In this document: one piece after another, positions 5,468 to 45,166 of the stretch
Numbering within the stretch: the stretch's first letter is position 1
Layout of the letters: every line of letters begins with the position of its first letter
Source: an uncultured Gammaproteobacteria bacterium
GTDB taxonomy: Bacteria; Cyanobacteriota; Vampirovibrionia; LMEP-6097
Direction of reading: 5' to 3'
DNA length: 64,000 nucleotides
Assembly: GCA_964438425.1 (NCBI GenBank)
Contig: CAYTKM010000005.1
Coordinates: 9,294 to 73,293, forward strand
Translations under genes and position numbers: made by a program
The notes under the pieces: generated by a model
Told to the model about the DNA's origin: nothing
The model's database searches: none
What the model saw: only the letters and a program-made list of their open reading frames with translations

Positions 5468-5953
5468 CTAATCAATAGTATAATTCTGCCGATAAGCTTC
5501 ATAGTAAGCAGTTTGCGCTGAACTAGCTAAATTTAAACAACGTGTTTTACCTGAAGACATGGGTATCGTTACTAAATTTTCTTTATACTGCTCGTACATT
5601 TCAGGCGCTAAGCCAGCTCCTTCGCTTCCAAACACTAAGCAAGCTCCAGTTTCATACTTCACATCCCAGTAACTTTTTTCAGTTTTACTACTAAAAAAAT
5701 ATAGATTGGATTGTTTAGCATTTTCAGTGCGCCAGTCTAAAAATTTAGCCCAATTTTCATGAATGTCGTATTTTAGGTTATGCCAGTAATCCATCGCTGA
5801 GCGTTTTAGATGTTTATCACTGATTTCAAAGCCCAGTGGTCTAATTAAATGAAGATGTAAATCATTCGCTACGCACATACGCGCGATATTGCCTGTATTT
5901 TGGGGGATTTCAGGCTGAAATAAAACTATATTGAAAAAGTTTTTAGCTGTCAT
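5468..5953 (-). CDS. trmL: tRNA (cytidine/uridine-2'-O)-methyltransferase TrmL (SpoU family)
   Basis: ~160 aa. PEIPQNTGNIARMC and CLVFGSEGAGL motifs. Confidence 0.8.
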   Translation of the reverse strand: MTAKNFFNIVLFQPEIPQNTGNIARMCVANDLHLHLIRPLGFEISDKHLKRSAMDYWHNLKYDIHENWAKFLDWRTENAKQSNLYFFSSKTEKSYWDVKYETGACLVFGSEGAGLAPEMYEQYKENLVTIPMSSGKTRCLNLASSAQTAYYEAYRQNYTID

Positions 5954-6078
5954 AGGCTAATAATTATAGCCTGACTACAGAGCTTCTAAAGCTTAAATCA
6001 CCAGATGCTAGGTTTTTATTACGCTATGTCTTTTTAATTTGAATTGGGTTTTTAGATTTTAGCTAATGAATTTTATTA

Positions 6079-7167
6079 CTATAGCCGAAATCTAGAACAG
6101 CTAATCTTGTTTTCTTCAGTTATAAAGCCGTAATCATTTTTAAGTAATTGTGCAAGCTTAGTTTGATCGTAATTAGCGCCATAACCACTAAATATAAACC
6201 TGATATTTAGACTATTAACAGTTTCCTTTAATAAGTTTTCTTTCAATCTTTTTTTATTTAGAAAAGTGTTATTGGGCTGAATTATACACTTATAGGGTAA
6301 AGCCTGCTTTAGTTTTAGCTGTTTTAAACATCTATAATAAAGGTCACTATCTATAAAATATATCTTTAAACTTATTAAAATTTTATTTAAGTGCCTGATT
6401 TCTGGTGAAAACTGTTTTCTAAAAGGCACTGAAATTATATTTAAATATAGCTTTAGTTTATTTACCTGAATGTTTGTAGGAAAGATTTTAAAGTAATTCA
6501 AACGCTCAAAGCTTAAAGAGGTGTCATTAATACTCTTCATAGTATTTAGAGTACTTATAAATTTAATGTTACAGGTTATATCTTTTAGTTTAAAAGTCAG
6601 CTGGTCTCTAAAAATTTTAAACTCTGTTGCATTTAAGTTACTTCTATTTTTACTTAGTACTGTAATAAACGACTTATCTATGGTCGATTTTAAGCTATAA
6701 CTTTTGTTTAGCTGAACTAAATTCAGGCTGATAGGTGAAAAGATAAAAATCTCAGCTTCACTAGTATTGGTTTGATTAATGCTACTCAGGTTTATTTGAT
6801 CTTTAGTAGATTTTAGATGCATAAAGTTAGTAGCGTGCTTACTAAGATAGCTATCTATAAAATAACGTTGATAAACGTAGTTTAGGACTAACTCTAAAGC
6901 CTTATTAAGGCTACTTTTATCATATACAGAACCTAAAATCATTTGATTTTGTAAGTCGAAAATTTTAAATATAGTTTGCCGATAAGCATCAATAAATTTA
7001 GAGTTTAAGCTTAATTCAAATAACTGAGTATTGTCTTTAGTTTTAGCAGTGTCTAGGTCTGATAAACATTGCTGACTTAAATTGTGAGCTTTTGAGAAAC
7101 ACTTTTGATAATAATTATCAGCTTGATACAAGGTATTGCCTTGAAAGTTGATTAAGTTTATATGCAT
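6079..7167 (-). CDS. hypothetical protein
   Basis: 362-aa ORF with no recognisable motif and low-complexity N/K/L-rich composition. Confidence 0.4.
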   Translation of the reverse strand: MHINLINFQGNTLYQADNYYQKCFSKAHNLSQQCLSDLDTAKTKDNTQLFELSLNSKFIDAYRQTIFKIFDLQNQMILGSVYDKSSLNKALELVLNYVYQRYFIDSYLSKHATNFMHLKSTKDQINLSSINQTNTSEAEIFIFSPISLNLVQLNKSYSLKSTIDKSFITVLSKNRSNLNATEFKIFRDQLTFKLKDITCNIKFISTLNTMKSINDTSLSFERLNYFKIFPTNIQVNKLKLYLNIISVPFRKQFSPEIRHLNKILISLKIYFIDSDLYYRCLKQLKLKQALPYKCIIQPNNTFLNKKRLKENLLKETVNSLNIRFIFSGYGANYDQTKLAQLLKNDYGFITEENKISCSRFRL

Positions 7168-7422
7168 TATTTCAATTTTATTGCTCTTGAGTAGATATTA
7201 ATTTGATACTCTAACTAATATATTATAGATGATATTACGTAAATATTAGATTATAGTCTTTAAAGTAGAAAAATTATCATGAAACTAATGTGAAATTAAA
7301 TAGCATCTATGTTCTATGTATTAATCTAACATTGTAGAAAAGAGCTGAACTCTAGTACTGTCAAGCTCCCCGAATCAGTTACTAATATTTCTAAAGATAT
7401 ATATTTAATAATAGAATCTAAA

Positions 7423-8325
7423 CTATAAACTTACGCTTTCATTTTTATAGACGTTAATAACTTTTAGATCATTGCCGATAAGCATTTTCAGTTTATGTTC
7501 TATATCAAAAGCTTCTTTTTTACTTATTACAGGTAATTCTAAGTACTCATGTTCCTCAGTTTGTATTTTGTTATTAGTGTTATCAGCATAATGATTACCA
7601 CGTGTTTCAAGCCAATACTCTTTACCACTTTTGGGCTTTGGTCGGTTAGGGGTGTTAATCTGTATATGTTTAATACCTGTTTGTTTAATGTTTTTTGCTA
7701 AACCTTCAAGGTAGCTTTCATCTTTAATAAATTTAGGCATAAACATTATTTGTAGCTGTAAGTTGGAGTTAGTTTCAGACTTAAGCTTACTAATACCACT
7801 TAAAATATCTGACATAGTAATATTAGCTGCTGCTTGGTTTAGACTTTTTAGTTCTTTATCTGTAGCTGAATCTAGCTTTAAGCTAATTAAATCTGCTTTA
7901 GAAGCTTCATACCTAAGCTGGCTATCATTTAACAAGGTGGCATTTGTTAATATCGAAATCGGCACTAATTTAGCTAAAGTTTTAAATTCATCTTGCTCTC
8001 GTTGCCAGTTGCGGATGGCTTCGATAATCTCACCCAGATTAAGTGCTAAAGTTGGTTCTCCCGAGCCAGCGAAGGTTATAACATCTAATTCGGCTAAGGT
8101 AAACTTTTCTTGCCGATAAGCATTATCTAAATCTTTTATTATTTTATTAGTTTCTACATAGATTTTACGCTCGATAGTAATATTCTGAATCTGACCTAAC
8201 TGACAATAAGCGCAGTTGAAACTACAAGTACTAATTTCACCAATAGGATCGATACCTAGTGAAGTGCCAGTGCGCCATGATTTGACCGGACCATAAACAC
8301 TTAAAAAAACTTTTGCCATATTCAA
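7423..8325 (-). CDS. radical SAM domain protein
   Basis: CSFNCAYC (CxxxCxxC) preceded by a G-rich SLGIDPIGE motif. 300 aa. Confidence 0.7.
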   Translation of the reverse strand: MNMAKVFLSVYGPVKSWRTGTSLGIDPIGEISTCSFNCAYCQLGQIQNITIERKIYVETNKIIKDLDNAYRQEKFTLAELDVITFAGSGEPTLALNLGEIIEAIRNWQREQDEFKTLAKLVPISILTNATLLNDSQLRYEASKADLISLKLDSATDKELKSLNQAAANITMSDILSGISKLKSETNSNLQLQIMFMPKFIKDESYLEGLAKNIKQTGIKHIQINTPNRPKPKSGKEYWLETRGNHYADNTNNKIQTEEHEYLELPVISKKEAFDIEHKLKMLIGNDLKVINVYKNESVSL

Positions 8326-8761
8326 TTAATCATAGCTGATTACACTAGGTCACGCTAATTGATGTTAAATAATATTCTAATCTTAGTATAGAAAATTTAT
8401 TAAAATTTCATTTATATTATACTGAGTAATTTTAATAATATGATTGTTCGCCGATAAGCTATTTAGCAAATTATAATATATAATCAAATAACTATTAATC
8501 ATGTATTACTATAGGTTAAAATATTTTACTTCAAAATTATTTGCCGATAAGTGACATATTAATTTATTTTTATGTAATAATTGCACTTATTGAAATATAA
8601 TCTTCCAACTAAATATTTATGAATGTTTATTTTATCTGATTTACTAATTAACTTTTTGACTAAAAAAAGCTTAGCTTTACTCCAATAAATCTAATAATAT
8701 AAATCGCTTGCTAATTTTACAAATCTAAGTAACAATAATAAAGGTAACTTTACATAAATTT

Positions 8762-9976
8762 TTGAAAAAACTTTTTTTACTTTTTACACTTTTAAGTGGT
8801 CTGAATATGGCTAATGCTGCTGTAGACGAGGACCGTACTATACGTGTACTTCTTACCAAGGGTGCCAGTGAAGCTAACATAGAAACTATTTATAATAATC
8901 AATTTACTGTTAAGGATAAGGCATATAAGAAGTTAAAAATTAAACTTTTTAAAGGCCAAATTTTAGCTAGTGATTCTATTTTCACTAAAGATATTAAGCA
9001 AGAACAGCTTGAAATTCGTAATCCCCAAAACGCTAGCCTGAAACTTTTTTTAAAGCAACAACCTTATAACAAGACTTTTATTACTAAAGGTAGCTTTAGA
9101 TTAAGTGAAAATAAAAATAAGCTTAGAATTGTTAACTATCTTAATTTGCATGACTACCTACTTGCTGTAGTACCGCATGAAATGCCTCTTTCATGGTCTG
9201 ATGAAGCGATTAAAGCTCAAATCGTAGCTGCGCGTACATACACACTTAAAAATATTAAAGTAAATAAGACTTTAGACTATGATCTTAAAACTACAGTAGC
9301 TGATCAGCGCTTCGGTAATATTAATCATGCTAGTAGCCGCTTAGTTAGTTTGCTTGCCGCAACTAAAAATCAAGTGTTGCTAGATAAATATGGTAATTTA
9401 ATTGATGCTTACTATAGTAGTAGCTCTAGCACTTCGACAGCTTCACCCGAAGAAGTTTGGGGCGTTAATCCCGCGCATTATTTATATGCGAGACCTAATC
9501 ATCGTGAAAACTCTCAATACGATAAGTGGCAACGTTCATTTACTTATCTCGAATTAAAAAGTAGATTAAAGGATGTCATAGATGAAGGCAAACTAGTTGG
9601 TGTAACTATTTTAAATAGGTCTGCCGATAAGCGTATTAAGAATATTTTATTAACGATCAAGACTAATACAACTAATCAAGCTCAATTTTCTAATAATGTA
9701 AATTCTACTTCGAGCTTAAGCGAAAATTTCAATCAATTAAGTTTAACTAGAAACGTTTATTTAACTGGCGAAGAATTTAGACATAAATTCAGTCTACCAA
9801 GCACTATGTTTGATATCAGGTTCGATGAACGTGGTTTAGTAGTGGATGGTGGGGGCTTCGGTCACGGCATCGGTATGTCTCAATATGGCGCTAAAAGTTT
9901 AGCTAAAAAAGGTTGGACTTATACACAAATTTTAGAATTTTATTACCCTGGTGCCAGTATTGAAACTCTTGATTAG
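8762..9976 (+). CDS. SpoIID/LytB-domain protein with signal peptide
   Basis: TTG start. Signal MKKLFLLFTLLSGLNMANA. VPHEMPLSWSDEAIKAQIVAARTY matches the SpoIID core. Confidence 0.75.
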   Translation: MKKLFLLFTLLSGLNMANAAVDEDRTIRVLLTKGASEANIETIYNNQFTVKDKAYKKLKIKLFKGQILASDSIFTKDIKQEQLEIRNPQNASLKLFLKQQPYNKTFITKGSFRLSENKNKLRIVNYLNLHDYLLAVVPHEMPLSWSDEAIKAQIVAARTYTLKNIKVNKTLDYDLKTTVADQRFGNINHASSRLVSLLAATKNQVLLDKYGNLIDAYYSSSSSTSTASPEEVWGVNPAHYLYARPNHRENSQYDKWQRSFTYLELKSRLKDVIDEGKLVGVTILNRSADKRIKNILLTIKTNTTNQAQFSNNVNSTSSLSENFNQLSLTRNVYLTGEEFRHKFSLPSTMFDIRFDERGLVVDGGGFGHGIGMSQYGAKSLAKKGWTYTQILEFYYPGASIETLD

Positions 9977-10057
9977 AAAATTTATTTTTAAAAGTATCAA
10001 ATATTGACTAAATTATCGAAATTTTTTAAAGTAATCCCATTTAATTATTAAACATTC

Positions 10058-10138
10058 AATTTATAATATTTTTCTAAAAAGAGGTTTAAATTAGAATTAC
10101 TTTCTAAATAATTAGCAAATTTATAATTTTTTTCTAAA
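10058..10138. repeat. A/T palindrome cluster A (TTAGAA-N5-TTCTAA with flanking direct repeats)
   Basis: ttagaattactttctaa at 10091-10107. aatttataat(a)ttttt(t)ctaaa direct repeats at 10058 and 10118. Confidence 0.5.
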
Positions 10139-10297
10139 TTTAACCGTTTTGTAATGTGTTTAAATTTTAATGAAAATAAAGAAATAATATAGATCTATAA
10201 AATATCTAAGAAATTTTACGATTTGTTATCAATAACTGGCTAAGCTATACCTTGTATGTGTATAAGTTAAGTTTATTAACTAAGGAGCGTATAAATT

Positions 10298-10555
10298 ATG
10301 GCAGGAATTAACAACAACCCAGCACAAGTTCAACAAAGTGCAACTAAAAAAGCTAGTAATCAAGCTGGCGTAAAAGCTAATAAAACTGATAGCACTAGTA
10401 ATCTTAGTGCTGCTGATCAGGCATCTTTAGCTACAGCTAATAAAGAAATGGGTTCAATTCAAAATGGTCTTGGTAGCCTTGCTGATAGTCTGGGTTTAGG
10501 TTCAGTTGCGAAAGTTGCTTTATCAGTAATGGATGCAAATGGTCTATTTGCTTAG
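10298..10555 (+). CDS. small hypothetical protein (85 aa)
   Basis: Strong AAGGAG RBS 8 nt upstream. Ala/Ser/Gly-rich with no recognisable motif. Confidence 0.5.
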   Translation: MAGINNNPAQVQQSATKKASNQAGVKANKTDSTSNLSAADQASLATANKEMGSIQNGLGSLADSLGLGSVAKVALSVMDANGLFA

Positions 10556-10618
10556 TAGATCTAAAATCTAAAATATAAGATTTAAACCATATCACCTATA
10601 CAATTTAACATAACTTTA

Positions 10619-11194
10619 GTGAATAACTGTTATATGTCTAACATAGATCAGGAACTAGATATTTTGTTAAATAAATTGAATTCATATTCTAAAGAAGATA
10701 AAAAAGAAAGTAATCCTGTATCTCGGAAGATTTTCGCTTCAGATAGTGTAAATAAAGCACAGTTACCAGCGAAGATATCTAATAGAAATAACGCTCCCCA
10801 AGGCAGAAAGAGACATATCATGACTACGTTATTAGACGAGTCTGGTAAAGGCTCTAATGACCGTCTATTGGACTATTTAAGTAGCTTGGAAACAACTTCT
10901 AAGTCAGAAGCATACGAAGAAAGAAAAAAGCTTTATTCTACTAAGTATAAAGAAAAAGAATCTTTTAAAATTATCGAAAATAATGAGCCTAAAATAGGCA
11001 CTAGAGTCGATCGCGAAGAGCTAGAACGCTCTAAAATGCTTTTTATCAATCGTGGCAAGAAAAAAGATAAAACTAAATTTAAACAAATTGATTACGAAAG
11101 AGATAATTCTAAGTACATAAACACTACAGCTAAAGTTATTAGTAATAACAACCAATTTGCGCCTTTGCAACTTAAAAAATTTAGTAGTAGATAA
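10619..11194 (+). CDS. hypothetical Lys-rich protein
   Basis: ORF only. The start may be the internal Met at 10634. Confidence 0.4.
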   Translation: MNNCYMSNIDQELDILLNKLNSYSKEDKKESNPVSRKIFASDSVNKAQLPAKISNRNNAPQGRKRHIMTTLLDESGKGSNDRLLDYLSSLETTSKSEAYEERKKLYSTKYKEKESFKIIENNEPKIGTRVDREELERSKMLFINRGKKKDKTKFKQIDYERDNSKYINTTAKVISNNNQFAPLQLKKFSSR

Positions 11195-11452
11195 AAGTTT
11201 AAAAACCCTATTACCCAATAGCTATCAAAACTATTTTACATAATATTTATACTAACCACCATATGCTGTGTTGCGGTTATCGTACGATATATAAAAACTA
11301 TAGCTCAGGTTTTAAATACTTAATCTTCAAATTTCAATTAACTATTACTAGCACAATGTTTCAGGCAGCAATACTCTGTAATATTAGTTCATAGAAATAT
11401 TTATTTATAAGGTTTGCATATATGCATTTCCTTTACTTTTACTAAGAGCTAT

Positions 11453-11506
11453 GTACACTATTATAAATATGTACACTATTATAAATATGTACCATAATAT
11501 AAATAT
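11453..11506. repeat. tandem 18-bp repeat x3 (GTACACTATTATAAATAT)
   Basis: Two perfect copies and one degenerate copy in a 1.1-kb non-coding gap. Confidence 0.7.
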
Positions 11507-11875
11507 CATCAAATCAAATATCAGTGCAATTTGATTAAAGCGTTTTCTAATAAAAATTATTAACAATGTCACAAATCTTTTCTTTAAGTGTTTAAAAGTT
11601 TTTATATGTAAAAATAGGTCACAGAAAATTAAATTCAGCAAATCTTTAATTTAAAAACTACAGTTAGCAAACCCCACCCATACACGTTTAAAATAACACG
11701 CATTTTTCTCATTTCTATTTCAGAAAAGGCTCTCCAGAGGGCTTTATATTTAAGATAACATTGTATTATCTTGAGCGAAATGGGTGCATTGAATTAAGCC
11801 TAAAAATGGTAAGGTTTTATTTCAATTTAGAATATAAATCACATAAAAAATTTCTTACACTTTAGTATAAACTTG

Positions 11876-11904
11876 TTGACACCCATACAAAAATAAGCTA
11901 TTAT
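11876..11904 (+). promoter_or_regulatory. sigma70-like promoter (TTGACA-17-TATTAT)
   Basis: Perfect -35, 17-bp spacer and near-consensus -10. Confidence 0.45.
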
Positions 11905-11990
11905 AAAAGTATGAGCACGAATTAAGTATAAGTAAACCCTCAAAGCTTTAATGTAGATCAAAGCAAATTAATTTGAATACGAACTATTTG

Positions 11991-11999
11991 TGCTATAAT
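11991..11999 (+). promoter_or_regulatory. extended -10 element TGCTATAAT
   Basis: TGnTATAAT lies 26 nt upstream of a small ORF with an AAGGAA RBS. Confidence 0.4.
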
Positions 12000-12024
12000 T
12001 TAATTAACAAACAAGGAAAACAAA

Positions 12025-12180
12025 ATGATAACAATATTAATGCTAACTATATTTGCATGGATATGCGCTTCAATACTTTGCAAAGCTTTCAAGAGATTAC
12101 ATGAAGAACATTCAAATTATACTTTCTCTGAGCTTATACTTTTAGCCATGTCAAATCCACCTAAAAACCAGCAAAGCTAG
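12025..12180 (+). CDS. unannotated small hydrophobic protein (51 aa)
   Basis: ATG has AAGGAA 7 nt upstream. It encodes MITILMLTIFAWICASILCKAFKRLHEEHSNYTFSELILLAMSNPPKNQQS, one predicted TM helix. It is below the ORF-track size cutoff. Confidence 0.45.
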   Translation: MITILMLTIFAWICASILCKAFKRLHEEHSNYTFSELILLAMSNPPKNQQS

Positions 12181-12303
12181 TTATATCAAACTTAATTAAA
12201 TAAATTTTAGAAGAGCCGAAAGCAAATAATGTGATTAGGTTCTTTTTATTTTACATCTTCCTTTCTAGATATAATGATTTAATATCACTTTAAATTAATT
12301 ATT

Positions 12304-13068: not shown

Positions 13069-13312
13069 AATAGCTTACTAATTAGTTTACATTGCTTAAA
13101 ATTTGTAATTCTTATTGAATGAGTTAACCAGATGCTTTTCTTACACAAGCTACTTAAATATTTTTGATTATTTTATGTAAATTTGCTTATCGGCAGGCGA
13201 GTTTAAATACACTCAGAGCCTAAGCACTTTGTATTATTGTCATTCACATCTATGAACTAGTATATTTAATCCTAAAGTAAAGCTAACTTTACATAATTAG
13301 GGAATTAAATAT

Positions 13313-14639: not shown

Positions 14640-14912
14640 CTACTTCTTAACAGGCATATGTTCTTTATCGGCTGTTTCAAAGCTCTTACAACCATATTTT
14701 ACGGCTAACTCCGATAAATCGGCATTACTTCTCTTTGCTTTTTTCCAGCCTGCTGGCTTATAATACCAGCATTTACGCTTTGAATGCCATTGTAAACTTT
14801 CAGCTTTTAAAGCTTTCTTGTTCGGTTTAGTATCACCTGTTACCCATAACCAGTAACCAATCAAAGACACTTCTATATTTCTAAGTTTTAAAAGTGTATA
14901 AAGTTTATTCAT
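14640..14912 (-). CDS. small conserved-looking hypothetical protein (mobile-element-like family)
   Basis: GYWLWVTGDT..LK..WHSKRKCWYY motif reminiscent of small proteins encoded on plasmids and phages. I could not place it in a named family. Confidence 0.4.
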   Translation of the reverse strand: MNKLYTLLKLRNIEVSLIGYWLWVTGDTKPNKKALKAESLQWHSKRKCWYYKPAGWKKAKRSNADLSELAVKYGCKSFETADKEHMPVKK

Positions 14913-18968: not shown

Positions 18969-19235
18969 TATAGAGATACATTATATCTTTCTAGAATGGT
19001 TAAAGGTATATTATGTTGATATTTAATTTTTTTACTAATATTCTTTTAATTTTAGATTAAATTTAATTTTTTTTGCTTATCGGCAAAAATAAAACACTAT
19101 GTATTGTAATAGATCAGAATTCCTGTAAATCAAGGTGAAGAATATATTTCAGCTGTAAAACAAGTTAGCATAGAACATAGTATAGTCCCTTTTACTAAAT
19201 TTTTAAGTGCTTAAGTTGAAAAATCTACGTTTTAA

Positions 19236-20444
19236 TTAAAATATATCTAAATTAATAAATTCAAGCTGATCAAAGCTTATAAATTCAACACAAATACCAT
19301 GATAATCTAAAGTTGTATTAAGGTTTTCATTTATTATAAAGCCTTTTTGGGTTTTAGGGTAAGCTGAAATAAATTTTTCAAAGCTTTTAGGGATATTTGC
19401 AACTTTCAAGTTAGATTTAACTTCAAATATATATGGTAGTTGATTTTTAATATATACAAAATCAATTTCATCACCTTTTTTAGTACGCCAAAATCTCAAC
19501 TCAGCATTAGGTGGCAGTTGTGTATATAAAAAATTATGAACATATGTTTCATGTATTAAACCTTTATCATCACGCAATTCTATAGATTTGAAATCACTTA
19601 AAATCATATTTCTAATTCCAGAATCATATAAGTAATATTTTTTAGATTTTTTTAGTTCATTACTTAAATTCTTAGCATAACTATGAAGAGAATAAAGTAC
19701 AAAAGTCTCTTCTAAAACATAAAGGTAATTTTCTAATTCTTTAGCACTTATTTTTAATTCATTAGCCAAACTTGCTATAGCAATGATTTGTCCTTGTCTT
19801 GCTGCTAATAAATATAACAATTTATTAAAGGCAGGTACATTTTGCTCGGCAATAAGTGATTTAATGTCCTTTAAAATATATGTAGCAAGTAGATTCTGCA
19901 ATTCTTTAATTTTATTAGCTTCATCTTTTATATTAATTAAAGCTGGCAGCGCGCCATATAGAAAATAATCAGCTAAACTATTATTGATTTGACTGTATTC
20001 ATTAAAGTTTAAAGGATATATTATTTCTTGATTTTTTCTTCCAGCCAAACTTTCTTTAAGGTGTTTATGAATCTCAAGTGAAGATGAACCTGAAGCGATA
20101 ATTTTAATATCTTTACTTGGATCATCATAAATAGCTTTAAAAAACTTGGAAGCATTATTAAAGTATTGAAATTCATCTATAAATATATAATCAACATTAT
20201 CAGTAATATCTTCATACAATTCAACTAAGTCTTGACTAAAGTAACGACTATCTTTAGGAATTTCTAGGTTAAAGTATTTAGCTCTCTTAGCTTTATCCTC
20301 TATAAACTGCTTTAGTTCTAATAATAAGTGAGTTTTGCCAACTTGCCTGGCTCCAATTAAAATTAGTATTTTAGAATTAGCTAAATCTTGTTGAAGATAC
20401 TCGTAAATAGTTCGTGTTATTAAATAGTTAGAGTTACTAGACAT
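19236..20444 (-). CDS. AAA+ ATPase, COG1373 family (AAA_14 + DUF4143)
   Basis: Walker A GARQVGKT, Walker B IFIDEFQ, SLAGR motif. Paralog of the 20766 gene. Confidence 0.7.
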   Translation of the reverse strand: MSSNSNYLITRTIYEYLQQDLANSKILILIGARQVGKTHLLLELKQFIEDKAKRAKYFNLEIPKDSRYFSQDLVELYEDITDNVDYIFIDEFQYFNNASKFFKAIYDDPSKDIKIIASGSSSLEIHKHLKESLAGRKNQEIIYPLNFNEYSQINNSLADYFLYGALPALINIKDEANKIKELQNLLATYILKDIKSLIAEQNVPAFNKLLYLLAARQGQIIAIASLANELKISAKELENYLYVLEETFVLYSLHSYAKNLSNELKKSKKYYLYDSGIRNMILSDFKSIELRDDKGLIHETYVHNFLYTQLPPNAELRFWRTKKGDEIDFVYIKNQLPYIFEVKSNLKVANIPKSFEKFISAYPKTQKGFIINENLNTTLDYHGICVEFISFDQLEFINLDIF

Positions 20445-22238: not shown

Positions 22239-22313
22239 TGGTGCTGGGGATAGGATTCGAACCCACGACCGCCTGATTACAAGTCAGATGCTCTACCAAC
22301 TGAGCTACCCCAG
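22239..22313 (-). tRNA. tRNA-Thr (anticodon TGT)
   Basis: Manual fold: GCTGGGG acceptor, D-arm GCTCAGTTGGTAGAGC, anticodon loop CTTGTAA, T-arm GGTTCGAATCC, 3' CCA. Confidence 0.85.
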
Positions 22314-22429
22314 CTCACGAATTAAAATTATAGCAAAAAGATTTTGAATAACTTTTATTTTGCTAGACTTATAGTTTTTTTTAATTTTTTAGGCAATTAG
22401 GTTTGAAGTAATGCTGTAAAATTGTCCAT

Positions 22430-22825: not shown

Positions 22826-23260
22826 TTAAATTACACTTGACTTATCGGCATCAGTAACCAGCTTGTCTAAGTTTTCAGCACTTTCAATTATATTTTTTTT
22901 CTCTAATGTTTTTATAACTCTAACCCCATGATGCAAAGTTTTAGACATTAAAATATGCTCGTCTTCAACTTCCATCACTATAAACTCTGTACCATCATCT
23001 AGAACCTCTTTTTGAACTAAATTAATCTTGTATTTTTGTTTAAGTCTAGAGCTAGGACCCACACCCTTTAATAAACCAAATTTTTCTTTTAGAAAATCTG
23101 GCACTACCCAGCTACCACTTTTAATTTTTTGGACTGCGTAATTACTAAATAACCAGAGAAACAGTAAAAATATTAAAACCGTATAAAACCTAGCGCTGAT
23201 ACTGTTAGTTATATTAGTAGGATTAGCTTCTGTCTCTATTAAGGCGGCAAGTAATATCAT
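22826..23260 (-). CDS. hypothetical membrane protein
   Basis: 144-aa ORF with a hydrophobic N-terminal half. Confidence 0.4.
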   Translation of the reverse strand: MILLAALIETEANPTNITNSISARFYTVLIFLLFLWLFSNYAVQKIKSGSWVVPDFLKEKFGLLKGVGPSSRLKQKYKINLVQKEVLDDGTEFIVMEVEDEHILMSKTLHHGVRVIKTLEKKNIIESAENLDKLVTDADKSSVI

Positions 23261-24544: not shown

Positions 24545-24545
24545 A

Positions 24546-25526: not shown

Positions 25527-25612
25527 GGCTTAAAAAGCTTTGATCATGATAGTTAAAAGTACTATTTTAGGCTTAAAAAGCTTTAATCATGATAATTAAA
25601 AGTACTATTTTA
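25527..25612. repeat. 43-bp tandem duplication (2 copies, 2 mismatches)
   Basis: ggcttaaaaagcttt(g/a)atcatgata(g/a)ttaaaagtactatttta x2, 50-135 bp upstream of the FliN-like start. Confidence 0.8.
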
Positions 25613-25813
25613 AGCTTGAAAAAATTAATTTGTAAAGATAAGCGCTATCAGTTAAATCTCAGGTTTTAGTATTCAAACTAAAAATTTAAAAAGTATAATT
25701 AGAGAATTCAAAGATATAAAATTAGATTATTTAAGGTAATACTACTATAAATACAATTAAATAAATAATTAAAGTGATGCAAAAATATAAAGCTTAGTAA
25801 AACTCAGAAAAAA

Positions 25814-26267: not shown

Positions 26268-28820
26268 TTGTTTTACTGCCGAGTTATTTTATCAAAACTT
26301 AACACCTACTTTAGTAAGCACTGGGATAATTCGCTCATTTATCAGCTAAATGGCGCTCAAAGAGAACAAATAAAAATTGGCTCTTTTATTCGAGTGACTC
26401 ATAAAACTAAACAAAGATATGCTTTAGTTATAGATGTTTTTGAAACTGCTAAAGCACCTGAATTTAAAGTTAACGAAGTTGATTCGCTTATCGGTAATAG
26501 TTTAGTCTATCCACCTGATCTAATTCAACTTATTTTACATACAGCTGAATATTACGCATCGACTTACTCTCAAGTACTAGATGCTAGTCTATCGATTAGT
26601 TTCTTACCTGATTTGAAGGTTTATTATCGCTTATCGGCAAGAATATTAGCGCTATTTAATGCTAAAAATAACATTAAAGATAAATCAGGTAAACTTAGCC
26701 TAAAAAAGCAAACTAATTCGGTTGATTATGTAAATGAAGAAATCTCAAGTGGCAATCTTACTAAAAATATATGCCTAGAGAGTCAAGATAGTTCAGAAAA
26801 TAAAGAAAATAGGGAAATATCTCTAGATCAGAGTTTAAAGAATTTATATAAAACTCAATATTCAAAAGATCAAGCAGGTTTAGACAAGCCACTAGAGCAA
26901 ACTAAACAAGTTACTGTTTCAAGTGAACTTGATTCTTTAATGGAAAACCAATATAAAATTCTTGAATTAATTTATAACTCCAGAAGTAAAAAACTACGTG
27001 ACGACCGTTTAAATCAGTTAGTCACTTTTAAAAAGAATACTTTAAAGAAACATTTAAAAGCTTTACTTGAGCGTGGCATGATAGTCAGTGAATATAGTTC
27101 AAGTGACGAGATTAGCCTAAAAAGTGAAGGCACAAGTATGATCGGTAAGCTAGCTCCCGCTGATAAAAATATTCGAGTTAAGCATGGACTTAATACAGAT
27201 CAAAAGCAGGCTTTAGAGTTAATTCGCAATTCAGATAAACGAATTAATAAGTTCGTTCTACATGGTATTACAGGTAGTGGCAAGACTGAAGTTTACATTC
27301 ATCTTTTAGAAGAAATGCTGGCAGCAGGAAAATCATCCATAGTGTTAATTCCTGAAATTTCACTTGCTCCGCAATTAATTCAAAGATTAAATCAGTACTT
27401 TAAAAGTGAAGATTTGCTAGTCTGGCATTCAGCTTTAAGTAAAGCCGAAAAAAGATATACATTTAATATGCTTTTAAGTGGCGCGCCTAAAATAGTGGTC
27501 GGCGCGCGCTCAGCGATCTTCGCCCCCTGCCATCAGCTAGGTTTAATAGTCGTCGATGAAGAGCATGAAAATTCTTATAAACAAAATGAACCCGAACCAA
27601 GATACCATGGTGTTCAGTTAGCACTAGAGCGCGCCAGCTCCGCTGGCGCGCGTCTCATTCTGGCATCGGCTACGCCAAGTATTGAAACCTACTTTAAAGC
27701 GATTAACTCTAATCATCCTGACTATCAGTTAATAGAGCTTAAAAACCGTACCAACCTAAAGTCTTTACCTGATATCGAAATAGTAGATATGCGCGAAGAG
27801 TTTAAAAATAATAATAAAAGTATTTTTTCAGCTGAACTCAGAAATCTTATAAATCAGAAACTAGAATCTAAAGAGCAGATTATACTTTTTCTAAATAAAC
27901 GTGGTGATTCAACACATGTATTTTGCAGGACTTGCGGTTTTGTTTACAATTGCCCAAATTGCACCAGTAAGATCGTTTATCATTCAGATAAACAAACTAT
28001 GTTATGTCACTTCTGTGGCTACCGGGAGCCTCACCCACGCTCTTGTCCAATGTGCGGCGAGCATACCATTAAATATTTCGGTTTAGGCACTCAAAAACTA
28101 GCCAGTGAAGTTAGTAAAGAGTTTAGTACAGCTAAAGTTAGCCGCATGGATAGTGACACTATGACCAATAATCAAAGTTATATTAAGCTCTGGCAGGATT
28201 TTGCAGCGCAGGATATAGATATTTTAGTTGGCACACAAATGATAGCTAAAGGTTTAGATAACCCTAATCTAACTTTAGTCGGCGTTGTTGCAGCAGATTC
28301 CAATTTTAATCAGTTAGATTACACCTCAGAAGAAAAAGCATTTCAATTATTAACTCAGGTGGCAGGTCGTGCTGGACGCGCCGCTAAAACGGGACAGGTG
28401 GTTTTTCAAACCTATCAACCAGATAGAGAAACTATTAAATTCGCTAGCAAGCACGACTATAATAATTTTTTTAACTATGAAATTGAAAACCGAGCAGATT
28501 ATAATTATCCGCCATTTAGTAAATTAATTCGTTTTATAGTACTGGGGCTTGATGAAAAAGCAGTTATAGACAACATTAACAGGTTGCACAGAAATCTATG
28601 TACAAAATTAGCAGTGCCAGAGAATATAGAAATTGAAGTCTTGGGTCCTTCGCCATGTCAGCTTGCTCGCATTAATAAAAAGTACCGCTATCATATACTA
28701 ATTAAGTTAATTCTTAATCAAGAATACTACCAGTTTGAAATTAAAAAAATATATTATAACTTCAGCTCAGATAACAATACTAATCTAATTATAGATGTAG
28801 ATAACTCCAGTCTATATTAA
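26268..28820 (+). CDS. priA: primosomal protein N' (PriA helicase) with low-complexity insertion
   Basis: TTG start. Walker A GITGSGKT, DEEH box, C-terminal Cys4 zinc finger CRTCG..CPNC..CHFCG..CPMCG. A ~180-aa N/K/S-rich insert follows the N-terminal domain. Confidence 0.85.
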   Translation: MFYCRVILSKLNTYFSKHWDNSLIYQLNGAQREQIKIGSFIRVTHKTKQRYALVIDVFETAKAPEFKVNEVDSLIGNSLVYPPDLIQLILHTAEYYASTYSQVLDASLSISFLPDLKVYYRLSARILALFNAKNNIKDKSGKLSLKKQTNSVDYVNEEISSGNLTKNICLESQDSSENKENREISLDQSLKNLYKTQYSKDQAGLDKPLEQTKQVTVSSELDSLMENQYKILELIYNSRSKKLRDDRLNQLVTFKKNTLKKHLKALLERGMIVSEYSSSDEISLKSEGTSMIGKLAPADKNIRVKHGLNTDQKQALELIRNSDKRINKFVLHGITGSGKTEVYIHLLEEMLAAGKSSIVLIPEISLAPQLIQRLNQYFKSEDLLVWHSALSKAEKRYTFNMLLSGAPKIVVGARSAIFAPCHQLGLIVVDEEHENSYKQNEPEPRYHGVQLALERASSAGARLILASATPSIETYFKAINSNHPDYQLIELKNRTNLKSLPDIEIVDMREEFKNNNKSIFSAELRNLINQKLESKEQIILFLNKRGDSTHVFCRTCGFVYNCPNCTSKIVYHSDKQTMLCHFCGYREPHPRSCPMCGEHTIKYFGLGTQKLASEVSKEFSTAKVSRMDSDTMTNNQSYIKLWQDFAAQDIDILVGTQMIAKGLDNPNLTLVGVVAADSNFNQLDYTSEEKAFQLLTQVAGRAGRAAKTGQVVFQTYQPDRETIKFASKHDYNNFFNYEIENRADYNYPPFSKLIRFIVLGLDEKAVIDNINRLHRNLCTKLAVPENIEIEVLGPSPCQLARINKKYRYHILIKLILNQEYYQFEIKKIYYNFSSDNNTNLIIDVDNSSLY

Positions 28821-38238: not shown

Positions 38239-38284
38239 CTTTTAGCTTAAAATTATAGCAACCATAAGTATTAATTAGTAATCG

Positions 38285-39064: not shown

Positions 39065-39161
39065 TCAACCATTTTATAACAACAACCAACACATAACAAA
39101 GGTAAAGTAAAAATAAAAAACAGGCTGAGTTAAAAACGGCTTATGCTATTATATCTAGGTT

Positions 39162-39623: not shown

Positions 39624-39714
39624 AACTTTTCTTTACAACTTAGAATTTTAGTTTATAATTTGGATAAATTCACATTAGTAAGCTAATGTTTTAAGTTGGA
39701 TTAACTAAATTAAT

Positions 39715-41317: not shown

Positions 41318-41580
41318 TAGTTAGACTTAGGTAGTACTTTTATAGAGCAATATATTACTCAATAAATATTAATTTTTAAATTAATATTGTCATTAAAACA
41401 TCTTAAATCTCGCACTATATACTATAAAACCTTTATATTAATACTAGTACAAATTTAGCTCCATAAAAAACATTTAATAAATCTTTAATCCTCTACAGCA
41501 CTATAATCTGAGATGTTTATGGTTGAAATTAAGCAGAATTTTAAGCAATCTGATATTATTTAAATTCAAACAAAAAAATT

Positions 41581-42843
41581 ATGAAATTAGAATTACATTG
41601 GCGTATATTTATAGGTTTGATCTTAGGTGCGATCCTAGGTACTTTATTTTCAGTAAACAACTCAGCTGAAGTTACAGATCCAAGCATCGGTTTTTTACAT
41701 CTAAGTCACATTGCCTGGGCAGGTGAGCTATTTTTAAAATTCTTGAAAATGATCGTAATACCACTGATCGTTTCATCAATAATCGTCGGCGTTGGTCACC
41801 TGCCAGTTAAAAGTTTAGGAAAAATCGGTTTAACCACCATAGTACTTTTTAAAGGACAAATGTTTTTTGCTGCCTGCATCGGTTTAATCTTCGTAAACTT
41901 AATGAAACCAGGTAAATATATAGATTTAAGAAGTGTTATTGATCTAGGTAACGTCTCAGAAGAAATTAAATTCGTGACCGAATCTAAAATTAGCATCTCT
42001 GAAGTGATTTTTGGTTTAATTCCAGAAAATATTTTTGAAGCTCTAGCACATGGCTCATTATTACAAATTATTATCTTTTCAATTATTTTTGCTGTGGCGC
42101 TTATCGGCATAAAAAATGGTGAAAAAATACTATCAGCTTTTAATATCGTTTTAGATGCGATATTAAAGATTACTCATTACATTATGGAATTTGCGCCGAT
42201 AGGTGTATTTGCTTTAATTACTAAGACTGTTGCGATTGGTGGTATTAGTTCACTTGCTAAGTATGGTCAATTTGTTTTAACTGTTTTATTGGCTTTATTT
42301 ACTATGTTGTTTGTGATTGGTTCACTTTTAATTCACTTCTTTACAGACAGTACACCACTAGAATTTTTTAAAAAGATGAGACAAGTTATGCTGACAGCTT
42401 TTAGTACCTCAAGTTCAGCTGCTACTATTCCAGTTACCTTAGAGACTATGGAAGAAGAATTCGGTGTACCTAACAAGATCGCCAGCTTTGTTATTCCACT
42501 AGGCGCGACTATGAATATGGCAGGTGCTGCAATTTATGAATCTATCGTAACTTTATTTGTAGCGCAGGCTTGGCTCCCACAACCCTTGACTTTGCAAGAG
42601 CAGATCTTCGTAGTAGTTATGGTATTGCTGGCAACTTTTGGTACTCCAGGTATTCCACATGGTAGTTTGATTACTATCGCTATCGTTTTTCAGGCTGTTG
42701 GCTTACCACTTGAAGCAATTGGGGTCATTTTAAGTATTGATCGTATTTTAGATATGACTCGTACGATGATTAACGTTTCTTTTGATAGTATTTCATGCCT
42801 AGTGATGAATAAATATTTTAAAAAAGAAGTTATGGAGCAGTAA
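41581..42843 (+). CDS. dicarboxylate/amino acid:cation symporter (DAACS family)
   Basis: Multi-TM protein with AFSTSSSAATIP and GATMNMAGAAIYE signature segments. Confidence 0.75.
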   Translation: MKLELHWRIFIGLILGAILGTLFSVNNSAEVTDPSIGFLHLSHIAWAGELFLKFLKMIVIPLIVSSIIVGVGHLPVKSLGKIGLTTIVLFKGQMFFAACIGLIFVNLMKPGKYIDLRSVIDLGNVSEEIKFVTESKISISEVIFGLIPENIFEALAHGSLLQIIIFSIIFAVALIGIKNGEKILSAFNIVLDAILKITHYIMEFAPIGVFALITKTVAIGGISSLAKYGQFVLTVLLALFTMLFVIGSLLIHFFTDSTPLEFFKKMRQVMLTAFSTSSSAATIPVTLETMEEEFGVPNKIASFVIPLGATMNMAGAAIYESIVTLFVAQAWLPQPLTLQEQIFVVVMVLLATFGTPGIPHGSLITIAIVFQAVGLPLEAIGVILSIDRILDMTRTMINVSFDSISCLVMNKYFKKEVMEQ

Positions 42844-42958
42844 GGTAGCTCTTAGTTATATTCGCATACCGCGTATCTTTTGGAGATGTCTAATAGTTTT
42901 AAAATTATAATTGTCTAGCTAACCCTGAAGTTATAATCATCAAAAATGATATTATTAA

Positions 42959-43687
42959 TTGAATATGTTATTTGTAACAGCTACTGATACTGGTGTTGGT
43001 AAGACTTTTTTTTCACAAAAAATCATCACCGAAGCCTGCCGCTACTTTGAAAGACATGAAATAGCTTATTATAAGCCGATCCAATGTGGCAAAGATGCTA
43101 AAGAACTATACGAAAATACTTTTTTAGAGACAGATTATCAGACTATCGAGCGTACCTGCCCTGAAATCGATACTTACTATGATTATTATTTCGATTATCC
43201 AGCATCACCTGACTACTCAGCTAAATTAGCTAATGTAAAAATAGATTTAGACAAGATTAAACAGACTTGGACTAAACTGAAAAATAACTATAAATTCGTA
43301 GTAATTGAAGGTGCTGGTGGCGTTACGGTACCGATTGGTGATTATGATTCTATGTTAGATTTAATGCTGCTGTTTGAGGTGCCAGTAGTCTTAATCAACC
43401 GTTCGAGTTTAGGTACTATTAATCACTCTATACTTAGCTTAAGAGAACTTAAAAAAGTTGGTGTAAGTATCGCAGGTTATATCTCAAATGAAGTCAATGA
43501 AGATGAAATGTTAGAGCTGGCTAAAAGTAACCCTGAAGTTAAAGATAGATATGATGAGCAGTTGCAAGAATCTTTTAACTCTATTACCAGATTTACTAAA
43601 GTGAAGCAGATTGAAGTTTATGATTTATTTTCTCATTTAGAGCCGCTTGCTAGTAATAAAAGTGAGCTGGATGTTACTTATAATTAG
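42959..43687 (+). CDS. bioD: dethiobiotin synthase
   Basis: N-terminal LFVTATDTGVGKT P-loop and KP..CG motif. Confidence 0.65.
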   Translation: MNMLFVTATDTGVGKTFFSQKIITEACRYFERHEIAYYKPIQCGKDAKELYENTFLETDYQTIERTCPEIDTYYDYYFDYPASPDYSAKLANVKIDLDKIKQTWTKLKNNYKFVVIEGAGGVTVPIGDYDSMLDLMLLFEVPVVLINRSSLGTINHSILSLRELKKVGVSIAGYISNEVNEDEMLELAKSNPEVKDRYDEQLQESFNSITRFTKVKQIEVYDLFSHLEPLASNKSELDVTYN

Positions 43688-44227
43688 AGTTTTTACATGA
43701 GTATCTGTTAAATTTAAGTTAAAAGTTGAAATCTAAGTAAGATTGATTTTTCTCATTGATATTGGCAAGCTAGATATTACTTATGATTAAATTTTTTGTA
43801 TAAGTTTTGTGAAATTTACATTTTAAAATTACTATATGTAAGTTTCCAGTGCGTTAAGTATGAGTTTATTATAGTTTAGGCTATAGATTATAAGAGATTT
43901 TAAGCTAAATTTTGTTTAAGTTGAAAACTATTCTAGGGTTATATCAATTAAATTCTTTCTTAGCTAAATTTTATATCAAGATCTATTTAGCTTAATAAGT
44001 TAAGATATGTATTTAGAATATAGTAACCTTCAAGAATCCAATGCTAGTTATTAAATTCTATAAAATAAAGATTTTTTCTCAAATCTTATAAATAGATATT
44101 ACTTCTATTCTTTCAAATTAAATTGAATGCCTGCTAGTCAACATTTAATAAGCTTAAAATATACTAAGTATAAATCTATAAACTAATTTTAGAAACTGAC
44201 ACTTATAAAATATTAGAATTATAGTTA

Positions 44228-45166
44228 ATGACTGATACGAGCACCAAAAACTCAGCACTCTTAAAAACCAAGCTGGCACATTTAGAATTAGATAATCCGA
44301 TTATGCCTGCATCTGGTTGTTTTGGATTTGGGGCTGAGTTTGATAGGCTATATGATTTAGATTTACTAGGAGCCGTTGCCCTTAAGGCAACGACATTAGA
44401 AACGCGCGCAGGTAATCAAACAGCGCGCGTAGCTGAAACCGAAGCTGGCATGCTAAATGCGATCGGCTTGCAGAACCCTGGCTTAGAAAAAGTGCTTTTA
44501 GAAGAATTGGCACTTTACCAACATAAAAAAACTAAGGTTATTATGAATGTTGCTGGTAATGGTATAGAAGATTACCAGCAGGTCGTAGCTAAGTTATGTC
44601 AGCATGCAAGTGTAAGTGGCATCGAGCTTAATGTATCTTGTCCTAATGTAAAAAAAGGTATTATGTTTGGCTCAGATCCTAAGATGCTCGCCGAGCTAGT
44701 TAAAGAAGTAAAGCCAGTTACTAATAATAAGCTACTAATAGTTAAGCTTTCACCTAATGTAACAGATATAAAAGTGATGGCAGGCGCCGCGATCGAAGCT
44801 GGCGCTCAGGCGCTCAGTCTGATTAATACTTTAATTGGCATGCGCATTGATCTAAAAACACGCAAACCTATTATCGCTAATAAAACAGGTGGACTTTCAG
44901 GTCCAGCTATTAAACCAGTAGCTATTAGAATGATTTATGAAGTTTACCGTGAATTTCCGCAGATACCCATCATAGGTATGGGGGGTATTAGTAATTTAGA
45001 TGATATGCTTGAATTTTTTATGGCTGGTGCCAGCGCGCTTGCCATAGGTACTGCTAACTTTGTTGATCCATATATTTGCCCGCAATTAATAACTGAATTA
45101 ACTGAATATATGCTTAAAAACAATATCAAATCTTTAAATCAGCTTATCGGCGCTGCTCACAGTTAA
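44228..45166 (+). CDS. pyrD: dihydroorotate dehydrogenase, class 1
   Basis: MPASGCFGFG...GLQNPG and NVSCPN active-site cysteine motif. Confidence 0.75.
   Translation: MTDTSTKNSALLKTKLAHLELDNPIMPASGCFGFGAEFDRLYDLDLLGAVALKATTLETRAGNQTARVAETEAGMLNAIGLQNPGLEKVLLEELALYQHKKTKVIMNVAGNGIEDYQQVVAKLCQHASVSGIELNVSCPNVKKGIMFGSDPKMLAELVKEVKPVTNNKLLIVKLSPNVTDIKVMAGAAIEAGAQALSLINTLIGMRIDLKTRKPIIANKTGGLSGPAIKPVAIRMIYEVYREFPQIPIIGMGGISNLDDMLEFFMAGASALAIGTANFVDPYICPQLITELTEYMLKNNIKSLNQLIGAAHS

Follow-up and report, generated by a model that had tools for sequence, protein, structure and literature searches.

Polarised Copies of a Short DNA Word around a dif-Shaped Palindrome at a Candidate Replication Terminus of a Caenarcaniphilales Chromosome

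Introduction

A short, asymmetric DNA word (TGCCGATAAGC) and a palindrome, termed element B, lie together in a 64-kb stretch of a bacterial chromosome (contig CAYTKM010000005.1; "the window" means this whole stretch at its full length). Copies of the word form two groups on opposite strands that read toward each other, and the interval between them contains element B and coincides with a switch in base skew, which we infer to be the replication terminus. Terminus biology, including dif, FtsK orienting polar sequences (KOPS), Ter, XerD-binding sites (XDS) and matS, is known in detail for few Proteobacteria and Firmicutes alone. The word is tentatively read here as a local polar guide for a DNA translocase acting toward a chromosome dimer-resolution site.

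The Locus and Its Host

The window has a GC content of about 31% and carries priA, secA, polA, rlmN, rnj, dapA, pyrD, a fliY/sctQ-like gene, spoIID and two tRNA genes. The best match of its SecA is 69% identical, and the named sources among the relatives of this protein are Candidatus Caenarcaniphilales and Melainabacteria. The host is a deep-branching member of Caenarcaniphilales (Melainabacteria), which are non-photosynthetic relatives of cyanobacteria. The window is an internal part of a metagenomic contig of 333,781 bp. Extension of the window by 9.3 kb on the left (locus L002) and 9.2 kb on the right (locus L006) gave an 82.5-kb composite. Of the source genome the analysis covers about 82 kb, and of each relative no more than 21 kb.

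Enrichment and Strand Polarity of the Word

The 10-mer GCCGATAAGC was searched on both strands of the window with up to one mismatch, using 100 dinucleotide shuffles as the null. It has 15 matches, compared with 1.80 ± 1.25 in the shuffled sequences (shuffle maximum, 7). A stray plus-strand match at 62911 (GCCGATATGC, one mismatch) is left out of all copy counts. The 14 counted copies extend from 5.5 to 45.2 kb, with seven on the plus strand (up to 9.6 kb) followed by seven on the minus strand (from 13.2 kb), and both groups read 5′ to 3′ inward (Table 1). Copy density peaks beside the switch, with seven copies within 4.1 kb on its left. At every k from 8 to 12 the word is the top over-represented k-mer of the window, and the 11-mer has nine copies, compared with 0.03 expected under a third-order Markov model. 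A perfect strand pattern with a single switch, at any switch point and in either sense, has a probability of about 0.0016; with a fixed centre and convergent sense, the probability is 6e-5. The most polar 8-mer in the 82.5-kb composite, with its array of clustered regularly interspaced short palindromic repeats (CRISPR) masked, is GCCGATAA (15:0). The core of the word across the lineage is CCGATAAG, and its form in this genome is TGCCGATAAGC. Sequences flanking T-GCCGATAAG-C are not conserved among the copies, so these are not copies of a mobile element.

The initial annotation had reported this enrichment and strand flip, and both are borne out (14 copies compared with about 1.8 expected). 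Its coordinates are all correct, with the one difference that the sites at 8450 and 45142 are perfect 10-mers that merely lack the 5′ T, and its expectation of about 0.03 agrees with the Markov value for the 11-mer. It had also taken the word for a signal at the level of DNA, a claim that the coding contexts of the copies uphold. Four of the 14 copies are intergenic; the remaining ten are spread over eight genes, on the sense or the antisense strand and in three reading frames, and encode AYRQ, LIG, ADK or RLSA. Rare codons are used within them: CGG accounts for 8 of the 500 Arg codons in the open reading frames (ORFs) of the window, and three of these eight are inside copies of the word; both sense copies contain GCC, a rare Ala codon (8%). 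Because the copies are found between genes as well as on either coding strand, in three frames, and use rare codons, the signal is assigned to DNA rather than protein.

Two other biased words were observed. The 12-mer TTAGATTTAACT has five copies (1964, 19411, 23579, 51431 and 55266; 0.18 expected), all on the plus strand and on both sides of the switch, and is unrelated to the word. The 7-mers CTTGTTT (16:0) and GCTTGTT (12:0) are polarised to the same switch point in the composite. This bias could reflect a further skewed word of broader distribution; its significance is borderline, given the roughly 3000 words tested.

Table 1. Copies of the word, element B and adjoining features in the window (positions numbered from the first letter of the window).
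Feature	Position	Strand	Start of GCCGATAAGC match	Context
Motif TGCCGATAAGC	5487..5497	+	5488	3′ end of trmL, antisense, codes E-A-Y-R-Q with rare CGG; ortholog in four relatives
Motif TGCCGATAAGC	6977..6987	+	6978	Inside 362-aa ORF, antisense, codes AYRQ with CGG
Motif copy	7473..7483	+	7474	Inside radical-SAM gene, antisense, codes L-I-G
Motif copy	8111..8121	+	8112	Inside radical-SAM gene, antisense, codes AYRQ with CGG
Motif copy (cGCCGATAAGC)	8450..8459	+	8450	Intergenic, divergent radical-SAM/spoIID pair
Motif variant TGCCGATAAGT	8542..8552	+	8543 (AAGT)	Intergenic, divergent radical-SAM/spoIID pair
Motif copy	9622..9632	+	9623	Inside spoIID, sense, codes A-D-K
Two small ORFs	10298..11194	+		An 85-aa ORF and a 186-aa ORF (10634-11194); like-sized ORFs occupy the spoIID-B interval in all five genomes
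Non-coding gap	11195..12303			Contains element B, a conserved 51-aa ORF (12025-12180) and, at 11450-11506, a tandem repeat with an 18-bp unit
Putative decayed motif copy TTTCAGAAAAGG	11718..11729	+		9/12 bases; at the conserved 24-25-nt spacing from B
Element B	11748..11776	-		Reads GCTCAAGATAA TACAATG TTATCTTAAAT; perfect 7-bp inverted arms, 7-bp asymmetric centre
Motif copy, innermost on right	13170..13197 (dif-shaped span)	-	13185	Intergenic; reads CCTGCCGATAA GCAAAT TTACATAAAAT
Motif TGCCGATAAGC	19075..19085	-	19075	Intergenic
Motif variant TGCCGATAAGT	22840..22850	-	22840 (AAGT)	Inside 144-aa ORF, sense, codes A-D-K
Motif variant ACCGATAAGC	26486..26495	-	26486 (ACC..)	Inside priA, antisense, codes L-I-G
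Motif TGCCGATAAGC	26629..26639	-	26629	Inside priA, antisense, third reading frame
Motif copy	42099..42109	-	42099	Inside gltP-like transporter gene, antisense, codes L-I-G
Motif copy (cGCCGATAAGC), outermost	45142..45151	-	45142	3′ end of pyrD, antisense, codes L-I-G

Conservation in Relatives

A syntenic locus is present in four relatives: L087 (metagenome-assembled genome DT_14, GCA_013216135.1), L089, L104 and L105/L106. These are closer to one another than to the window genome and are therefore not independent of each other; their SpoIID proteins are merely 38-41% identical to that of the window. Gene order is kept, running (pdxA-hpf-)trmL, an unknown ORF, a radical-SAM gene, spoIID, two small ORFs and the gap. 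CCGATAAG is the enriched core in each relative (8 copies compared with 0.29 expected in L087; 7 compared with 0.07 in L104). Plus-strand copies are located in pdxA, the 3′ end of trmL, the unknown ORF, (the radical-SAM gene) and two places in spoIID, and are followed by minus-strand copies, one in spoIID and then one in the gap. Because of the reversed spoIID copy, the switch in polarity in these four genomes is a 77-91-bp interval inside spoIID and not element B.

Two of the orthologous copies bear on the nature of the selection. The trmL copy retains the rare CGG codon in the relatives. At the site in spoIID that corresponds to the copy starting at 9623, the DNA word is kept in the relatives in another frame (P-I-S-K instead of A-D-K), and such frame-shifted conservation is hard to explain except by selection on DNA.

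The locus of the species whose contigs carry SpoIID P0122 (L089-L092) was recovered in 59 index blocks, yet on no contig exceeding about 7.5 kb, which suggests assembly-breaking repeats or strain variation on both sides of the terminus locus.

Element B

Element B is located in the gap between the innermost copies of the word. It belongs to a block, AGATAATA(C/T)AATGTTAT.TT.A, that is conserved in all five genomes amid otherwise unalignable non-coding DNA, and its core is invariant in the five host genomes and in two subfamilies of phages. It has the layout of a dif/Xer site, in which two inverted arms of about 11 bp enclose a centre of 6-8 bp, with a TAA-N7-TTA signature (AAGATAA-TACAATG-TTATCTT), and is the only perfect AGATAA-N7-TTATCT in the window, lying inside the 8-16-kb peak of the skew switch described below. 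Its arm TTATCTTAAAT matches at 10 of 11 positions the sequence that we take to be the canonical XerD arm of Escherichia coli dif (TTATGTTAAAT). The two arms are nearly symmetric, suggesting that a single type of recombinase may bind both. Judged by its shape and conservation, element B is a candidate Xer site and a candidate dif.

Compared with the relatives, the window has element B in the opposite orientation, and the site that corresponds in spacing to the gap copy of the relatives is probably a decayed copy of the word (Table 1). The innermost right-hand copy of the window (13170-13197) is dif-shaped itself, and the innermost left copy in the relatives likewise has a TTA after a 6-bp spacer; however, conservation between genomes does not include the right-hand arms of these sites. 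No reference for element B as dif is available within the phylum, because dif could not be predicted in any cyanobacterium (Kono et al., 2011; PMC3025954).

Another dif candidate in the window (candidate A, 11233-11260, minus strand, GGTGGTTAGTATAAATATTATGTAAAAT) was rejected. Although 20 of its 28 bases agree with E. coli dif, three other sites in the window tie with it; the TAA-N6-8-TTA shape is missing, and L087 has no conserved counterpart.

Skew Switch and Position of the Terminus

Raw GC skew is uninformative at this locus because gene orientation dominates it, so third-position skews of genes were compared between strands. On the left side of the gap the plus-strand genes have more G and T; on the right side it is the minus-strand genes that do. 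Across the 82.5-kb composite, the orientation-corrected switch statistic peaks at 8-16 kb (gene-label permutation, p = 0.003 for GC3 and 0.0006 for TA3). The same test in L087 has the same sign at element B (TA3, p = 0.008; GC3, p = 0.17). The two tests draw on 59 and 16 genes.

By a near-universal rule, the leading strand is G-rich. The sign of the switch therefore points to converging forks, that is, to a terminus and not an origin, and it places the word on the leading strand on both sides, pointing at the terminus. In the window, all 14 copies are consistent with a leading-strand word that points at dif and switches at the terminus. A search for DnaA boxes in the window revealed no cluster (18 found, 16 expected), and neither dnaA nor dnaN is present there.

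From polarity, the initial annotation had placed a replichore boundary, either origin or terminus, at 10-13 kb, coincident with a 1.1-kb non-coding gap. The gap is real. The boundary itself is favoured by the skew switch, which peaks in the same interval as the flip in polarity, by the same sign in L087 and by the dif-shaped palindrome in the gap; the origin option falls to the terminus sign and to the lack of a DnaA-box cluster, dnaA and dnaN.

Range of the Word

The word is confined to the neighbourhood of this terminus. All 14 copies lie within 39.7 kb of the 82.5-kb composite (P about 5e-4 under uniform placement), and the cluster has no copy within 14.8 kb on its left side or within 28 kb on its right side (about 43 kb; the stray match at 62911 uncounted), including the extensions L002 and L006. 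The SecA locus of the DT_14 genome (L007, 22.8 kb) also has no copy, whereas the syntenic locus of that genome has eight. Four non-syntenic spoIID loci of Melainabacteria (L088 and L101-L103; 85 kb) contain neither the word nor element B, so the cluster is tied to the locus and not to spoIID. About 80 unrelated loci have background counts of the word only. The SecA-based scan of genome contigs returned mostly unrelated phyla, with L007 and L008 as useful loci.

Classical words of the KOPS, SpoIIIE recognition sequence (SRS) and Chi types are either missing from this DNA or show no polarity in it. A proposal in the initial annotation, that the word is a genome-wide architecture-imparting or Chi-like sequence, fails on the confinement of the copies to 39.7 kb, on the empty control locus of the relative and on the lack of relation to KOPS, SRS and Chi. 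Its alternative of an uptake signal fails on distribution as well: DNA uptake sequences and uptake signal sequences number hundreds to thousands of copies genome-wide, and the copies here form a local cluster.

Two further repeats were noted in these loci. TACCAATAA(CA) in L007 was considered as a diverged form of the word and rejected; its five copies all fall in a single frame of a single ORF of 2330 aa, which makes it a coding repeat. In L088, the 10-12-mers GTCATCCTGAGG, AGGATCCACTA and GGATCCTTACG have about six copies each, three on either strand, and look like a dispersed repeat resembling miniature inverted-repeat transposable elements.

Phages Carrying Both Elements

Viral contigs of one family were retrieved when metagenomes and IMG/VR were scanned for element B. 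L100/L093 carry six direct copies of GCCGATAAG(Y)AAWRTTA, at distances of 109-386 bp from element B and all aimed at it. L109 and L113 have four copies each, and L096/L098/L108/L110 have one copy together with three copies of an unrelated 22-bp repeat. Element B of these phages is located about 1.5 kb upstream of genes for a helix-turn-helix protein, the large terminase subunit (phrog_2, E = 3e-28) and head proteins, with a DnaB_N/DUF3987 helicase gene on its other side; given these genes on either side, the contigs are assigned to tailed phages, with the elements at the boundary of the early and late modules. In L113 the arms of element B are kept and the centre differs, a pattern that fits a recombination core or an operator.

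Recognition of the phage arrays by the small terminase subunit (as pac or cosB sites) was considered and rejected. A TerS-like protein is 95% identical between a phage with four copies and a phage with one copy plus the repeats, and since a near-identical protein accompanies differing arrays, the arrays are not its recognition sites. More than 120 matches from a viral scan for paired copies were nearly all in-frame coding repeats for Ala-Asp-Lys in phages of higher GC content and are irrelevant. The CRISPR spacers to the left of the window have no match to the fetched phage loci.

In L098 (4330-4420, minus-strand view), three 22-bp repeats, (A)CCCTATAGTCCACT(A/T)TAG(G/A)CTT, take the place of most of the array and are followed by a palindrome, TACCTACTAGTAGGTAGGTA; this arrangement may be an iteron-type origin. 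Unrelated IMG/VR contigs with a GC content of 0.47-0.53 (L156/L173 and L151) contain non-coding arrays of GGGCCGATAAGATG (spacing 16/32 bp) and CCCGCCGATAAGGTAGA (spacing 25-26 bp), and the core GCCGATAAG may thus be a binding word of other mobile elements too.

Possible Functions of the Word and Element B

The reading that we place first, tentatively and at rather less than even probability, is that the word is a polar guide or loading signal with a KOPS-like role, directing an FtsK-type translocase toward a dimer-resolution site within a local dif activity zone. The word would be an asymmetric protein-binding site restricted to a few tens of kb around the Caenarcaniphilales terminus. An FtsK-type translocase, with FtsK itself as the presumed reader, would recognise the inward-pointing words on both sides and drive Xer recombination at element B, and the local polar elements would set the zone in which dif is active. 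The phages would have a portable pairing of resolution site and polar guide. This reading is ranked first because FtsK/Xer/dif systems are near-universal and the geometry fits; the word is short, asymmetric and strongly over-represented, as KOPS and SRS words are. A dif activity zone set by nearby polar elements has reportedly been described in work by Cornet and Louarn.

Several findings weigh against a KOPS-like role. Known KOPS, SRS and architecture-imparting words spread along whole replichores, whereas in the roughly 82 kb examined the word is local, being absent from the 43-kb flanks and from the 22.8-kb control locus of a relative. CCGATAAG is unrelated to the G-rich consensus words of the GGGNAGGG/GAGAAGGG type, and the exactness of the word in this genome, over 10-11 bp, exceeds what a KOPS-type signal needs. 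No ftsK gene was found in the window or the fetched loci. In the four relatives, the shared minus-strand copy in spoIID, about 1.3-1.5 kb to the left of element B, has the wrong orientation relative to it, and another minus-strand copy lies at a fixed 24-25 nt from it. In the phages, copies are arranged in arrays spaced at about 40 bp, and 14 of 15 units have a TAA-N6-TTA shape. The fixed spacing from element B, like the arrays of the phages, is more reminiscent of sites bound by a recombinase or architectural protein than of translocase signals that act independently. Element B itself has a 7-bp centre, unusual for dif, and contains a -10-like TA(C/T)AAT, so that a promoter or operator is possible.

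A broader proposal is a terminus system of Caenarcaniphilales that has not been described before, in which a Tus/RTP analogue or an Xer paralogue would act on about 14 oriented CCGATAAG sites as a fork trap, or as a barrier to a translocase or SMC (structural maintenance of chromosomes) complexes, around a new dif with a 7-bp centre, and in which tailed phages of these bacteria would have taken over the pair of elements to control their replication or to resolve their genomes. It is regarded as somewhat unlikely.

A Ter-like fork trap, in which a polar fork-arrest protein analogous to Tus or RTP would bind the word so that forks enter the terminus zone and cannot leave it, is a serious rival but considered unlikely. 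The layout is that of Ter sites, with two opposed groups of about seven sites each that are strictly polar and rich in information; they are limited to the terminus region, and the skew indicates a terminus. With a free switch point, all five genomes fit with no exception, and the innermost pair in four of them is convergent and 77-91 bp apart, which resembles the tightly opposed TerI/TerII pair of Bacillus subtilis. Plasmids R6K and R1 carry Ter sites, a parallel to the copies beside iteron-like repeats in phage L098. Against a fork trap, whose terminator protein is usually encoded beside a site, the scanned ORFs, which comprise most of the larger ORFs of the window and include those beside the switch, yielded no Tus/RTP family match or recognisable DNA-binding protein, and the model of the 186-aa neighbour is unconfident (predicted local distance difference test score [pLDDT], 58). 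The word is unlike Ter consensus sequences, seven sites in 4 kb on one side is a higher density than in known traps, and known traps are phylogenetically rare.

The word may alternatively represent half-sites or accessory sites of an Xer-type recombinase, TTGCCGATAA being an arm related to the arms of element B (TTCAAGATAA). Such sites could serve in XDS-like unloading of SMC complexes or as accessory repeats like those of cer, psi and the internal recombination site (IRS) of Tn4430. We hold this to be quite unlikely, though again a serious rival. The word and the arms of element B share TT...GATAA (7 of 10 positions); the word resembles at 7 of 11 positions what is presumably the E. coli XerC arm (GGTGCGCATAA), and the arm of element B matches the XerD arm at 10 of 11. 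The TAA-N6-TTA shape of the phage units (14 of 15) recurs at the innermost host copy at the polarity switch in all five genomes, and the spacing of 24-25 nt between element B and the adjacent copy is fixed in four. The number of copies in the phage arrays varies (6, 4, 4 and 1), as expected if direct repeats recombine, and restriction to the terminus resembles XDS. However, the composite sites have right-hand arms that show no conservation from genome to genome, most host copies have no TTA (it is present in 2 of 15 in the window), and copies are located up to 34 kb away, too far for an accessory role. In addition, the conserved GTAAAATTA of the relatives is coding sequence, and the phage units are paralogous and so are not independent observations.

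That the copies are operators of a transcription factor or phage-type regulator, with incidental orientation and with element B as a promoter or operator, is highly improbable. The -10-like TA(C/T)AAT between the inverted arms of element B, the position of the phage element B at the head of the late (packaging) operon, the arrays in a divergent regulatory region and the flagellar genes nearby in the relatives would fit such a role. Yet housekeeping genes contain 10 of the 14 copies, which keep no set orientation relative to those genes, and polarity tracks chromosome position and coincides with the skew switch. In the window, element B faces the opposite way with respect to the downstream ORF that it would serve in the relatives, and L113 changes its centre and keeps its arms.

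Iteron plasmids have DnaA boxes adjoining their iterons, and the two positions at which the reverse complement of the word deviates from TTATCCACA are critical for DnaA contact. The remaining two readings have only a very slight chance of being correct, and they share with the operator and uptake-sequence readings that at least one test contradicts each. A Chi-like hotspot for AddAB/RecBCD, co-oriented with replication and enriched at terminus breaks, would suit an 8-bp core on the inferred leading strand that is aimed at the terminus, and an AddA-like helicase-nuclease is encoded in another Melainabacteria locus (L103), but Chi sites occur all through the core genome, whereas zero copies are present in the 43-kb flanks, the 22.8 kb of L007 and the 85 kb of four other Melainabacteria loci, and the fixed spacing from element B and the phage arrays are unlike Chi. 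Variant DnaA boxes, with the locus as oriC or a DnaA-titrating cluster, would be in keeping with TTATCGGCA in the reverse complement (7 of 9 against TTATCCACA), with the divergence of genes at 8.3-8.8 kb and with the L098 copy beside three iteron-like repeats, but the skew sign is opposite to that of an origin, neither dnaA/dnaN nor a cluster of canonical boxes is found in the window (18 compared with 16 expected), and a 40-kb spread with strict polarity is unlike DnaA boxes.

Neighbouring Genes and Repeats

The conserved 51-aa ORF is the only ORF in the gap, and Rfam, promoter and terminator scans of the gap gave nothing significant. ORFs similar in size to the 85-aa and 186-aa ORFs lie between spoIID and element B in all five genomes, with homology shown for the 186-aa ORF alone (in L087 and L089). 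Family scans of both ORFs gave no match. For the 186-aa ORF, a homologue search returned the query itself as the sole match, a PDB sequence search was empty, with no homologue of known fold, and a single-sequence AlphaFold model was uninformative (pLDDT, 58; predicted template-modelling score, 0.16). A literature search for the word itself returned primers only.

Three tandem repeats were observed. The repeat in the gap (TATGTACACTATTATAAA, 18 bp, 3.2 units) is located between the rejected dif-like site and element B and has no counterpart in the relatives. The others are intergenic, one downstream of spoIID (10058-10139; 30-bp unit, 2.7 units) and one beside a tRNA-Val gene (25527-25623; 43-bp unit, 2.2 units).

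To the right of the gap, the relatives have no syntenic counterpart of a block of small ORFs at 13.3-16 kb, which may be a mobile-element remnant beside the palindrome. One ORF in this region (14640-14912, minus strand, 90 aa) is 37% identical (E = 4e-9) to part of a PHROG-15863 gene in the phage-like contig L100. Two genes for AAA_14/DUF4143 ATPases are divergent neighbours (19236-20444, minus strand; 20766-21986, plus strand) and are followed by a tRNA-Thr gene (22239-22314).

To the left, a gene for a 666-aa pentapeptide-repeat protein lies two genes from an AAA_15/AAA_21 ATPase gene (1248-3248 and 4141-5373, both minus strand). The N-terminus of the 666-aa protein has a weak HalA-like match (Hailong anti-phage effector), and this pair, together with Fic and TacA/acetyltransferase genes in L002, suggests a defence-rich neighbourhood. 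Positions 1-3430 of L002, which lie 5.9-9.3 kb leftward of the first letter of the window, hold a CRISPR-Cas locus with cas1, a transposase gene of the rve family and cas2. Its array has 24 repeats of 36 bp (ATTATAGCAACTTAAGATTTGAGGACTTTATATAAC) separated by spacers of 30 bp.

Implications

The set of cis-elements, 14 oriented sites plus a palindrome found in five genomes, would locate the terminus in uncultured Melainabacteria, with element B as a candidate dif for the lineage. The word is polar and under selection strong enough to override codon usage, yet its range is tens of kb, and it departs from known KOPS-type words twice, being local and unrelated in sequence. The phages provide a second, independent system for identifying the binding protein and its function.

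Comparison with Known Systems

KOPS of E. coli (GGGNAGGG) and SRS of B. subtilis (GAGAAGGG) are, like the word, asymmetric leading-strand words of about 8 bp that are aimed at dif, switch at the terminus and are kept among related genera. Unlike them, the word is not G-rich, is unrelated in sequence, extends over about 40 kb instead of whole replichores and is exact over 10-11 bp, and four relatives share an exception beside the candidate dif. Ter sites of the Tus (E. coli) and RTP (B. subtilis) systems are also few, opposed and asymmetric, flank the terminus and have related sites on mobile replicons, whereas the sites described here have no similarity to Ter, no Tus/RTP homologue nearby and a higher density (seven in 4 kb).

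In the phages, a palindromic core accompanied by one-sided direct repeats that share arm sequence is reminiscent of the accessory sequences of cer and psi and of DR1/DR2 in the IRS of Tn4430. The phage distances are larger (100-430 bp), however, and the host copies extend over tens of kb, which no accessory-site model explains. XDS are said to occur in the terminus region of B. subtilis, according to Karaboja and colleagues in 2021, and are likewise a handful of elements resembling recombinase half-sites around dif. Compared with dif/XerCD, element B has a centre of 7 bp instead of 6 bp and lies off the polarity switch in four genomes; like dif, it consists of inverted arms around a short asymmetric centre and is conserved across genera. 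Within the window it has a single copy, in non-coding DNA inside the interval of the skew switch.

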